Translations under genes and position numbers: made by a program
Source: a virus
Virus record (IMG/VR): IMGVR_UViG_3300030328_002122
Location: 64,001-128,000 of that record
Length of the DNA stretch: 64,000 nt
Strand: one strand, 5' to 3'
The notes under the pieces: generated by a model
Told to the model about the DNA's origin: nothing
Database searches by the model: none
The model's input: only the letters and a program-made list of their open reading frames with translations
In this document: piece after piece, positions 52,849 to 55,351 of the stretch
Layout: each line of letters opens with the position of its first letter
How positions within the stretch are numbered: position 1 is the stretch's first letter

Positions 52849-53559
52849 ATGTTTATACACGAGTCGGTAGATATACCAGAGGTATCTACAAAAAACGTCA
52901 ATCGAAAAAGATTTTATGTGACACCAGAAGGTGGATTATATCCATCTATTACTACAGTACTTTCTCTTAGAAAGAAACAAGGTCTTTCAGAATGGAGAAA
53001 ACGAGTCGGTGATGATGTTGCAAATTATATTGCAAGAACGGCTGCAAATCGTGGAACGAAAGTTCACCAGATGTGTGAGGATTTTCTAAACAATAAAGAA
53101 GTAACTAAAGACAATAGAGATTTTTTACCATATTGTTTATTCACACAAATCAAAGATGTTATCAAAACAAATATAAATAATATATATGCACAAGAATGTG
53201 GATTATGGAGTGATAAATACAAAGTTGCAGGCCGAGTAGATTGCATTGCAGAGTATAACAACATTCCATCTATAATTGATTTTAAAACTTCCAAATCAGA
53301 AAGAAAAGATGATTGGAACTTAGAGTATTATATACAAGCATCTGCATATGCAGAGATGTTTGAGGAAAGAACAGGAAAACCAATAGAGCAAATTGTTATT
53401 CTTGTGGTTACAGAAGATGGTCATGTTCAAGAGTTTATTAGAAAGAAACATGAGTATTTACCTATGCTTGTTGAAGTTATTGATGAATTTGTAATGCAAT
53501 GGGAAAGAGAAGAAAATGCAAAAAATAATTCTAATAATAACATTTCTGTTAACGCTTAA
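52849..53559 (+). CDS. PD-(D/E)xK exonuclease (Cas4/RecB-like)
   Basis: YPSITTVL, RGT.VH, AGRVDCIAEY, IIDFKTS and Y..Q..AYA. Confidence 0.88.
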   Translation: MFIHESVDIPEVSTKNVNRKRFYVTPEGGLYPSITTVLSLRKKQGLSEWRKRVGDDVANYIARTAANRGTKVHQMCEDFLNNKEVTKDNRDFLPYCLFTQIKDVIKTNINNIYAQECGLWSDKYKVAGRVDCIAEYNNIPSIIDFKTSKSERKDDWNLEYYIQASAYAEMFEERTGKPIEQIVILVVTEDGHVQEFIRKKHEYLPMLVEVIDEFVMQWEREENAKNNSNNNISVNA

Positions 53560-53872
53560 TATCTATAGTGTAAATGCACAACCCACTACTGGTTGGGTAA
53601 TGAAACCAACTCAATGTGGTAATGCAGATGTTGTTATAGAAGGTCTGAAATCAGCAGGAGAAGATCCTTTTGTTTGGATGAATGGTCGTTCTATGAGTGT
53701 AGAAGGTATATTTCTAGATACCAGATTTGTTTTAGCTATGAACACAAAAACACTTGATTGGACTCTTTTAGAGTTTACTAGAGATAATAAATTTGCGTGT
53801 GTACTAGGATCTGGTAATGGAACAATTAATATGAATACAGAAATAAATAAGAAAAAAGGTGTTGACTTATAA
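53516..53872 (+). CDS. Secreted/periplasmic hypothetical protein
   Basis: Signal peptide; KP.QC...C.LG.G. Confidence 0.6.
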   Translation: MQKIILIITFLLTLNIYSVNAQPTTGWVMKPTQCGNADVVIEGLKSAGEDPFVWMNGRSMSVEGIFLDTRFVLAMNTKTLDWTLLEFTRDNKFACVLGSGNGTINMNTEINKKKGVDL

Positions 53873-53892
53873 TATTCTATATGTTATAAATA
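53862..53892 (+). promoter_or_regulatory. Hybrid sigma70/late promoter for tmRNA
   Basis: TTGACT, 17 nt, TGn-TATAAATA. Confidence 0.75.
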
Positions 53893-53896
53893 AGGT

Positions 53897-54237
53897 ACAG
53901 TTTGTTGATACGAATTGATGTTTGGATAGGACTTGGGGGCAGTACCCAACGCCTCCACCATAGACACACTAGGTTTTGGTATATCAATTGATATATAACC
54001 ATACCTTTGTACACAATGGTTAACATCATCTGATCGGAAGGTAGGATCAGCTAGTGTGTCTTTGATGGGGGCGAAATAGGATCGACTAACAAATGAATAT
54101 GAGAGTAGAACTGTCGCATGACCTCGTTATCGGTCAAAACAAATAAGTGCAAACAATAATTTTGCGCCTGTAGATTTCGCCATAGCGGCTTAATCGTACT
54201 GAGTTTTGGTGGTGTACTTGGAAACAGAAACACCACT
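53897..54237 (+). ncRNA. ssrA: Circularly permuted (two-piece) tmRNA, alphaproteobacterial type; tag (A)ANNNFAPVDFAIAA
   Basis: Acceptor piece GACTTGGGGGCAGTACCCAACGCCTCCACCA ends at 53960, followed by an intervening hairpin. Coding piece starts GGGGGCGAAATAGGATCGAC at 54067 with a G3.U pair. Tag ORF 54149-54193. Outer ends approximate. Confidence 0.93.
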
Positions 54238-54327
54238 ACATGAATAGGGTCACTACTTAATAGGTGCGTGTGGAGTCATGGTTAACTCCATTTCAACAAA
54301 ACACAACATGACAATAAAGGAGTCTTT

Positions 54328-54564
54328 GTGATGAATCTAGAAGAAGTTGTAAAAATTACACCAAAGAAATTTGCATTACAGATTGAAGAAATCGTTAAAT
54401 GTGGTGGTGTAACTTATATGGATGCTATTCTAGATTATTGCGAAAAGAATAATATGGAGCCAGATACAGTTGCTCCATTGATTTCTAAACCTCTGAAAGA
54501 GAAGTTAGAGGCAGATGCAAGGGAATTAAACTTTTTACCAAGAGTTGCAACATTACCTATTTAA
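54328..54564 (+). CDS. 33: Late transcription coactivator gp33
   Basis: F...IE.IV....TYMDAI..YCE.N..E...V..LISKPLKEKL..A..LNFL; adjacent to gene 59. Confidence 0.9.
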   Translation: MMNLEEVVKITPKKFALQIEEIVKCGGVTYMDAILDYCEKNNMEPDTVAPLISKPLKEKLEADARELNFLPRVATLPI

Positions 54565-54566
54565 TT

Positions 54567-55142
54567 ATGGAATCGTGGGAAGCCTATCAGATGTATCTAG
54601 GTCTTAAATTACACTTTACAAGTGACTATGATTACAGACGATATGGTGGTAAAACATCTGCCTCTAAATCATCTTTCTTGAAAAGAAAAGACAGGAATTT
54701 CTTTTCAAGAGTTGTAAGAAAATATGAAGGTAAAGAATTAGATTTTTTTATATCTAATTTTATTAAGCAACCGAAAGGTTATATTGGAGATTTTAAGGAA
54801 GAAAATTTTATAGAGTGGTCTAAAAATCAACAATCGTTGACATATAACTTTATTAAAGATATGTCACATTTAGTTTCTCAAGAAAGTTTTGATAACATAT
54901 TTAAATGCGAGTCTGGTAAACATCCAACTCTTGTCAAATCTTATCTTGCAAAAAGAATTAGTTTAGAAACTATGGTGATATTACAAAGTTTAGTCAACTA
55001 CATGGAACAGTTTAATAGGGATTTAAAACAAGACTTAATATGGCCAGACATAAGAAGAATGGTTACGAAATATAGTTCGTTTTTATCTTTTGATAAACAT
55101 AAATGCAAAATAAAACTTCTAGAATTACTAAAGGAGATATGA
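54567..55142 (+). CDS. 59: Helicase loader gp59
   Basis: Y..YL.LKLHFT..YDY..Y.GK, F.KRKDR.FF and ISLET. Confidence 0.9.
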   Translation: MESWEAYQMYLGLKLHFTSDYDYRRYGGKTSASKSSFLKRKDRNFFSRVVRKYEGKELDFFISNFIKQPKGYIGDFKEENFIEWSKNQQSLTYNFIKDMSHLVSQESFDNIFKCESGKHPTLVKSYLAKRISLETMVILQSLVNYMEQFNRDLKQDLIWPDIRRMVTKYSSFLSFDKHKCKIKLLELLKEI

Positions 55143-55351
55143 TCGTGGAAAAAGAAATGCACTCTAATAATAAAAGTAAACTTGTTAGAGAAAGAGATTT
55201 TTATCGTGCTAAAATGAGTGAATTAAAAAATAAGATAAAAGCTCTTGAATATGATAATGCAGAATTAATTAAACGTGATCAAGTTTTATCTAAGAGAATG
55301 GAAGAAATAACTTCCTTGAGATCACTTAAACAAAAGAAAAGGGTTAATTGA
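55103..55351 (+). CDS. Coiled-coil hypothetical protein (start likely 55139)
   Basis: SD aaggag before ATG 55139. Confidence 0.55.
   Translation: MQNKTSRITKGDMIVEKEMHSNNKSKLVRERDFYRAKMSELKNKIKALEYDNAELIKRDQVLSKRMEEITSLRSLKQKKRVN

Follow-up and report, generated by a model that had tools for sequence, protein, structure and literature searches.

Introduction

A cellular two-piece transfer-messenger RNA (tmRNA) of the Caulobacter type was reportedly described by Keiler, Shapiro and Williams in 2000. Among phages, Buchholz et al. (2022, PMC9004378) reported two-piece ssrA for Melnitz, which infects OM43, as well as for pelagiphages and related contigs. Of 47 related contigs, 17 had permuted tmRNAs, and 18,146 phage genomes yielded 53 two-piece tmRNAs (PMC9004378). 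In the same study the Melnitz ssrA was reported to be alphaproteobacterial in type, though its host OM43 is a non-alphaproteobacterium, and a glutamine riboswitch was found directly 3′ of ssrA in Melnitz and Mosig, a feature that was stated not to be defining (PMC9004378). Phage tmRNAs listed earlier came from mycobacteriophages and Bacillus phage G (PMC4131195), and the 2025 tmRNA database holds 79 unique bacteriophage tmRNAs (PMC11915505). Here we analyse a permuted tmRNA gene found in a 64,000-nt stretch of DNA from an uncultured marine T4-like phage (the window, with positions counted from its first base), which corresponds to bases 64001-128000 of the 145,194-bp IMG/VR virus record IMGVR_UViG_3300030328_002122, estimated to be 95% complete. 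The phage two-piece tmRNA is already a published kind and the window phage adds another example; the gain lies at the level of the class, namely structural selection across about 100 diverged phage copies, presence in ocean metatranscriptomes and evolution as a phage gene in its own right.

A permuted tmRNA gene of alphaproteobacterial type

We consider it highly probable that the gene is a functional phage ssrA, old and vertically inherited, whose product is a two-piece tmRNA performing ordinary trans-translation on host factors. In the window ARAGORN calls a single tmRNA, of the permuted form, which spans 53868-54284 of the plus strand (the strand of all features below unless stated), with the tag ANNNFAPVDFAIAA and its stop at 54149-54193. 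The best-scoring member of the Rfam clan is RF01849 (alpha_tmRNA), with 116.4 bits (E 4.7e-31) at 53858-54240 against a gathering cut-off of 50 bits, and RF04321 (tmRNA_permuted) reaches 105 bits at 53897-54193 against a cut-off of 47 bits. Since ARAGORN and Rfam agree, the tmRNA is supported by two independent detectors, and the permuted call together with the RF01849 score bears out an initial annotation of the window in which a permuted two-piece tmRNA of alphaproteobacterial type had been proposed.

The gene is circularly permuted: the acceptor 3′ half and the T-arm lie upstream of a spacer, and the acceptor 5′ half and the tag frame lie downstream of it. The acceptor piece, as delimited by the Rfam alignments and by covariation, is 64 nt long (53897-53960). 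It opens with one strand of a 5′-terminal helix (53897-53902, with its partner at 54109-54114 according to Rfam and to pair counts) and continues with the P2b and P2a strands that Rfam places at 53922-53924 and 53927-53929, the partners being at 54086-54088 for P2a and 54090-54092 for P2b. Next can be read the T-stem (53933-53937/53945-53949) around the non-canonical T-loop GGCAGUA (53938-53944), the acceptor 3′ strand CGCCUCC (53950-53956) and ACCA (53957-53960). The intervening segment is exactly 106 nt long (53961-54066) and is predicted to be discarded on maturation. A closing helix of 11 bp (53962-53972/54051-54061) stacks on the acceptor stem, and a leader UUGAU (54062-54066) lies between this helix and the acceptor 5′ strand. 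The spacer holds no gene, its only ATG opening a frame of 5 codons, and it folds with -31.9 kcal/mol (z -4.0).

The coding piece, taken from the Rfam match, runs from 54067 to 54240 with an approximate 3′ end. Its first bases are the acceptor 5′ strand GGGGGCG (54067-54073), which pairs with CGCCUCC and gives a G3.U pair at 54069. It also contains the PK1 region (about 54115-54140), the tag frame called by ARAGORN (54149-54193), in which the resume codon is the GCA at 54149, the peptide is ANNNFAPVDFAIAA and the stop is the UAA at 54191-54193, and, where the RF01849 match ends, a 3′ pseudoknot hairpin (54201-54237; stem 54208-54215/54230-54237, loop ACUUGGAAACAGAA) in which GAGU at 54201-54204 is able to pair with the loop bases ACUU at 54216-54219. 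The tRNA-like domain has a 7-bp acceptor stem, the G3.U alanine identity pair, a T-arm and a 3′ CCA. The CCA end at 53960, the spacer length, the start of GGGGGCG at 54067 and the G3.U pair are all exactly as they had been annotated.

Comparison with described tmRNAs

The nearest cultured phage is Methylophilales phage Melnitz. Its tmRNA, like that of the window, is permuted and of alpha type, has the T-loop GGCAGUA and stands behind a TTGAC-17-TATAAATA promoter; the two are 79% identical over the conserved parts of the tmRNA and fall in the same clade, starred in the tree described below. The slot is also the same, since the gene order around the window tmRNA (PhoH, PDDEXK nuclease, hypothetical gene, tmRNA, gp33, gp59, ThyX, gp32) is the order annotated in Melnitz. 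The two phages differ in the length of the spacer (106 nt in the window versus 142 nt in Melnitz), in the tag (ANNNFAPVDFAIAA versus ANDNYVPVDYALAA), in genome GC (33.4% versus 37.6%) and in the glutamine riboswitch, which scored 52.8 bits in Melnitz as a control, whereas after the window tmRNA neither RF01739 nor RF01704 gave a match at E<=10 and the core motif is absent from the whole genome.

In the case of the SAR11 myophages HTVC008M and Mosig, the likeness is more general. Their tmRNAs are permuted, of alpha type and carried by T4-like marine phages, and score above the RF01849 cut-off (83.8 bits for HTVC008M and 67.6 for Mosig, with 106.7 for Melnitz), but their T-loops are UGCAAUA and UGCAACU, their acceptor strand is CACCUCC and their tags are short (ANFNEYALAA and GEDNFALAA). 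They form a separate clade of the tree, which also holds one small low-GC cellular genome, and their proteins are about 48% identical to those of the window phage. With cellular alphaproteobacterial tmRNAs the window gene shares the order acceptor piece, spacer, coding piece, as well as G3.U, GGCRGUA, the P2 helices and a 3′ hairpin with an AACAGAA loop; it differs from them by a longer tag that starts with ANNN where bacterial tags have ANDN, by a phage-type promoter and by the lack of a terminator and of a cognate smpB in the genome. Finally, the Bxz1-group mycobacteriophages and Bacillus phage G likewise carry ssrA without a phage smpB and are presumed to depend on host factors (PMC4131195), but their tmRNAs are one-piece and the phages and hosts are unrelated.

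Selection on RNA structure among phage relatives

A scan of IMG/VR for the exact 26-mer that covers the T-arm and acceptor matched at least 120 viral contigs. A recurrence on this scale, with the compensatory changes given below, goes far beyond chance. ARAGORN called permuted tmRNAs in 77 relative loci, mostly low-GC T4-like fragments with the same neighbours, and the syntenic position is retained across at least 70 diverged T4-like phage contigs. Over 94 distinct phage copies, the core pairs, 18 in number (acceptor, T-stem, P2a and P2b), are canonical in 97.6% of cells; shifting the 3′ partners by 1-3 columns lowers this to 42-52%. Double (compensatory) changes are many in the two outer T-stem pairs and in all six P2 pairs, and G3.U is retained in all 94 copies, though the extraction permitted A-U. 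The inner three pairs of the 5′-terminal helix are canonical in 88 of 91, 90 of 91 and 87 of 92 copies, and AU, UA, GC and CG are all used. For this helix, a duplex-energy test against the partners of other phages gave a weak contrast (-10.0 versus -8.7 kcal/mol), because relatives share helix sequences, and the column pair counts were used instead.

The remaining helices behave in the same way. At the 3′ hairpin the loop ...AACAGAA is retained and the stem covaries in nearly all relatives, while the pairing between flank and loop changes in step across them (GAGU/ACUU, GGGU/CCC, GCGC/GCGU). The spacer closing helix keeps at least 7 contiguous bp in 78 of 81 relatives with differing sequences, and shows a C-G to U-A double change relative to the nearest relative, L106, whose spacer also differs by a 31-nt indel. 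A conserved structure in the interior of the spacer was ruled out: only the closing helix is kept, around an interior of 9-266 nt. Because the T-stem, P2, the terminal helix, the spacer closing helix and the 3′ hairpin all covary, the gene is plainly maintained by selection acting on it as an RNA. The closing helix joined to the tRNA-like top is the architecture expected of a precursor that RNase P would cleave on the 5′ side of G1, with trimming back to CCA.

The tag peptide

The tag was compared with 69 other phage tags and 106 bacterial ones, 176 in all. The 70 phage tags have without exception an intact frame, an Ala resume codon and an A-x-A-A end, and are typically 14 aa long, versus 12 aa in the sampled bacterial tags. 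An ANDN start is present in 106 of 106 bacterial tags, the window tag is the only one among the 176 that starts with ANNN, and its AIAA ending is rare in both sets. The initial annotation had described the tag as of the ANDN...AA kind held to be alphaproteobacterial; the ...AA end stands and the ANDN start does not. With respect to L106, whose gp33 is 97% identical, the interval 54067-54300 holds seven differences, of which six lie within the 45-nt tag frame, and the replacements are conservative (N/D, F/Y, I/L).

Could such a tag serve to disturb host trans-translation? According to this explanation the tmRNA would be mainly a competitor that damps or redirects the host system, by titrating SmpB and by swapping the host tag for a phage one with a different protein fate. 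A tmRNA reduced to the tRNA-like domain, of the type found in mycobacteriophage DS6A, is reported to act as an inhibitor of tmRNA, and titration of SmpB may be the means (PMC4131195, PMC11915505). The window phage lacks an SmpB of its own: as had been stated for the window, none was found there, nor in the whole 145-kb record (95% complete). Moreover, no other part of the mature RNA changes as fast as the tag, which also deviates from ANDN...ALAA, and phage tags are typically the longer ones. However, the canonical Ala resume codon and the A-x-A-A end of all 70 phage tags give them the look of normal degradation tags, the replacements relative to L106 are conservative and AIAA ends occur in bacteria too, so that we regard a competitor role as unlikely compared with ordinary trans-translation.

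Promoter, transcript and RNA evidence

Upstream of the tmRNA lies a dual promoter (53862-53892) composed of a -35 TTGACT (53862-53867), a 17-nt spacer and TATAAATA (53885-53892), a box that is legible both as a sigma70-like -10 (TATAAA) and as a T4-type late box. The hybrid early/late promoter that had been proposed for the gene is therefore present and it is conserved, with TTGAC-N16-19-TATAAATA upstream of the tmRNA in about 45 of the 77 relatives and the late box alone in a further dozen. The 145-kb genome has just 3 copies of the motif; the other two lie at window positions 854 and 56635 (plus strand), the latter about 100 nt upstream of gp32. Transcription would start at about 53897, and at this predicted position both the covarying 5′-terminal helix and the RF04321 match begin.

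Part of the stretch is present in 20 marine metatranscriptome runs, which belong to 17 studies, and four runs from four studies were compared. Run X1 holds a 517-nt contig with 0 differences over 54067-54581, whose first base is precisely the leading G of the acceptor 5′ strand; it covers the coding piece, the leader and the complete gp33 gene and carries the exact tag variant of the window. In run X8 a 152-nt contig is confined to the coding piece (54076-54227) and has the six substitutions that define the L106 tag, whereas runs X5 and X6 yielded only contigs of the gp33 region of relatives. Both tag variants exist in RNA libraries, from two studies. The acceptor piece, the spacer and the upstream open reading frame (ORF) have no contig cover in the four runs, and absence in contigs carries no inference. 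The start of the X1 contig at 54067 hints weakly that a 5′ end is formed where RNase P is predicted to cut.

These data also bear on the idea that the tRNA-like fold is mainly an RNase P processing module, which would set or stabilise the 5′ end of the gp33-gp59 message while rescue is secondary or lost. There is no terminator between the tmRNA and gp33/gp59, one RNA contig runs unbroken from G54067 through gp33, and a dual early/late promoter suits a gene on which the late switch depends. However, one contig that spans two genes does not establish one transcript, and many relatives have other genes, tRNAs or another promoter, and not gp33, after the tmRNA. A mere processing signal would not need a conserved tag frame, G3.U and a 3′ pseudoknot, and we judge this idea very improbable.

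Ancestry and host

Judged by its sequence, the tmRNA is of alphaproteobacterial ancestry, and the signal is real. The T-loop GGCAGUA of the window fits the RF01849 consensus GGCRGUA, and the cellular genomes that carry the exact T-arm/acceptor 26-mer, at least 120 of them alphaproteobacterial, are essentially all Alphaproteobacteria; a T-loop of this type had rightly been taken as an alphaproteobacterial trait. In a core tree of 96 phage and 102 bacterial copies, which with a short alignment of 111 columns is indicative only, one branch with 97/91 support parts all the phage copies from all the bacterial ones, and the window tmRNA lies with Melnitz in the starred clade. When the tmRNAs of nine small alphaproteobacterial genomes were added, one of them (1.41 Mb, about 34% GC) joined the HTVC008M/Mosig clade (95/85) and the clade of the window stayed phage-only. 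The tmRNA type may consequently be the record of an old acquisition and not of a recent capture from the present host, as far as an indicative tree goes. Outside the phages, a contig (L126, CANISR010000028.1) from a metagenome-assembled genome labelled Candidatus Marinimicrobia, possibly mis-binned, carries a typical alphaproteobacterial two-piece tmRNA that scores 249 bits with RF01849.

A functionless passenger, be it captured host DNA or what was once an integration site, is hardly credible, since, even if prophages commonly integrate at tmRNA genes and fragments of these genes occur in them (PMC9004378; PMC4383910), this gene is complete and not a fragment, belongs to a phage-only clade and is present in RNA libraries, and both the covariation and the single syntenic position in at least 70 diverged contigs contradict such an origin.

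The genome as a whole is close to Melnitz. Counterparts of 94 of its 147 ORFs are found in that phage, at a mean identity of 61%, compared with 66 ORFs at 49% in HTVC008M and 54 at 46% in Mosig. Among the 42 proteins common to all three cultured phages, 40 have their best match in Melnitz, and these 42 are 67% identical to Melnitz versus 48% to the SAR11 phages. For gp32 the identity is 75.7% to Melnitz and about 60% to Mosig and HTVC008M. Because the tmRNA belongs to a phage-only clade and the genome as a whole is closest to a phage of OM43, the tmRNA cannot be used to assign the host, and the suggestion that it points to the host class has to be given up: an alphaproteobacterial-type tmRNA in a marine myophage is an unreliable host marker. 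The host may be SAR11, OM43 or another streamlined marine bacterium.

Proposed mechanism

A model of how the window gene would work as a phage ssrA can be drawn from these observations and from established tmRNA biology. Transcription would start near 53897, early in infection through TTGACT/TATAAA and the host sigma70 and late through TATAAATA and the phage gp55/gp33, and the transcript would probably continue into gp33-gp59. The precursor folds, as the covariation shows, into a tRNA-like top with a 7-bp acceptor stem bearing G3.U, a T-arm and P2 helices, which the spacer closing helix would lengthen. Host RNase P would then cut 5′ of G54067, the step to which the X1 contig may relate, and the 3′ side would be shortened as far as the encoded CCA at 53960, with loss of the 106-nt spacer. 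The 64-nt acceptor piece would stay paired to a coding piece of about 174 nt. Once charged by the host alanyl-tRNA synthetase, the RNA would be delivered to stalled ribosomes by host SmpB and EF-Tu. Translation would resume at the GCA at 54149, add ANNNFAPVDFAIAA and in this way mark the protein for host proteases. The presumed benefit is that ribosome-rescue capacity would be upheld while host transcription stops and mRNA breaks down. The initial annotation had suggested that the RNA may relieve stalling or counter RNA-cleaving defences.

Several points weigh against this model. Processing, aminoacylation and tagging are presumed for this phage group, and the compatibility with host SmpB is assumed if the host is not alphaproteobacterial. 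The RF01849 score is only 116 bits, compared with about 160-313 for most cellular alpha tmRNAs (151 genomes in that score range), from which it follows that part of the usual 3′ domain is missing; model positions of about 275-330 are absent. The tag has another residue in place of D3 of ANDN, a start that hardly varies elsewhere. A consensus sigma70 scanner omits the tmRNA promoter, because its TATAAA -10 has no conserved T at position 6. No terminator-like site that could define the 3′ end was found in 53400-55300, so read-through into gp33-gp59 is most likely and the 3′ end of the coding piece must come from processing. Also, the RNA evidence consists of assembled contigs with no DNA control, and a fair alternative for the end at 54067 is an assembly break, plausible there because the spacer differs between strains.

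What would lead lytic phages to spend resources on ribosome rescue in streamlined marine bacteria? The question is raised by this gene and its relatives, and the cultured systems of Melnitz with OM43 and of pelagiphages with SAR11 are suited to it.

Neighbouring genes and a two-hairpin leader element

Downstream of the tmRNA, the gene for the late-transcription coactivator gp33 occupies 54331-54564; its homologue in locus L029 matches the Pfam family Trans_coact (PF16805). The gene for the helicase loader gp59 (54567-55142) follows directly and is identified by synteny with the Melnitz annotation. Both are probably co-transcribed with the tmRNA.

Between the tmRNA and gp33, and outside the tmRNA itself, a two-hairpin RNA element lies at 54246-54291. 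It consists of AGGGU, a first stem CACU/GGUG enclosing ACUUAAUA, the sequence CGUGU and a second stem GGAGU/ACUCC enclosing CAUGGUUA. Its general form is AGGGU, stem 1 with a CUUAAUA loop, CG, and stem 2 with a (C)AYGGUUA loop, of which the loop sequences CUUAAUA and GGUUA are invariant. The element is 100% identical in L106 despite indels in the flanking spacer, is also found in Melnitz (L001, 4517-4560), downstream of the riboswitch, and occurs in at least 120 viral contigs according to a pattern scan. Of 90 distinct copies, 88 have all positions of stem 1 paired, each position with several pair types, and 79 have a stem 2 of 6-8 bp, which exists in 61 variants. The element matches no Rfam family. 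The element precedes gp33 in 26 of 82 cases, and otherwise Hsp20, the gp44 clamp loader, radical SAM, desaturase, lysozyme or 2OG oxygenase genes; it often lies 25-40 nt before the start codon and sometimes follows a tRNA. We propose it as a candidate for a new phage cis-regulatory or processing element.

It is conceivable, if doubtful, that the dual promoter, the tmRNA, the two-hairpin element and gp33/gp59 form one composite RNA unit, in which the RNase P cut at G54067 and the element would together shape the expression of the coactivator. If so, the supply of a ribosome-rescue RNA would be tied to the late-gene switch, and the two-hairpin element would establish a new class of cis-regulatory RNAs in phages, working as a ligand sensor or as an operator bound by a protein.

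Among phages the slot after the tmRNA holds varied cargo, namely tRNAs, a riboswitch, the leader element or ORFs. The only tRNA call in the whole record of the window phage, besides the tmRNA, is a tRNA-Asn(GTT) located outside the window (G000:C1:55794-55882), which at 89 nt is long for a tRNA. In eight relatives (L013, L018, L030, L032, L048, L060, L067 and L111) tRNA genes lie directly after the 3′ hairpin of the tmRNA, and those of L013 and L032 are confirmed by Rfam. In six others (L038, L049, L080, L095, L097 and L103) a TTGACA...TATACT promoter followed by a hammerhead-like GUCACUGAUGAG-stem-CGAAAC lies about 100 nt past the 3′ hairpin; the hammerhead-like cores CUGAUGAG...CGAAAC of the relatives are unconfirmed, no Rfam hammerhead family reaching its gathering score in L038, L049 or L103. 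A family of 79-aa proteins (MSNSKNPFELRFDTL...) with no Pfam match is encoded at L287:586-822 on the minus strand and at 12 other loci, and it recurs just downstream of the tmRNA (L005, L021, L075, L077 and L086) or of the two-hairpin element.

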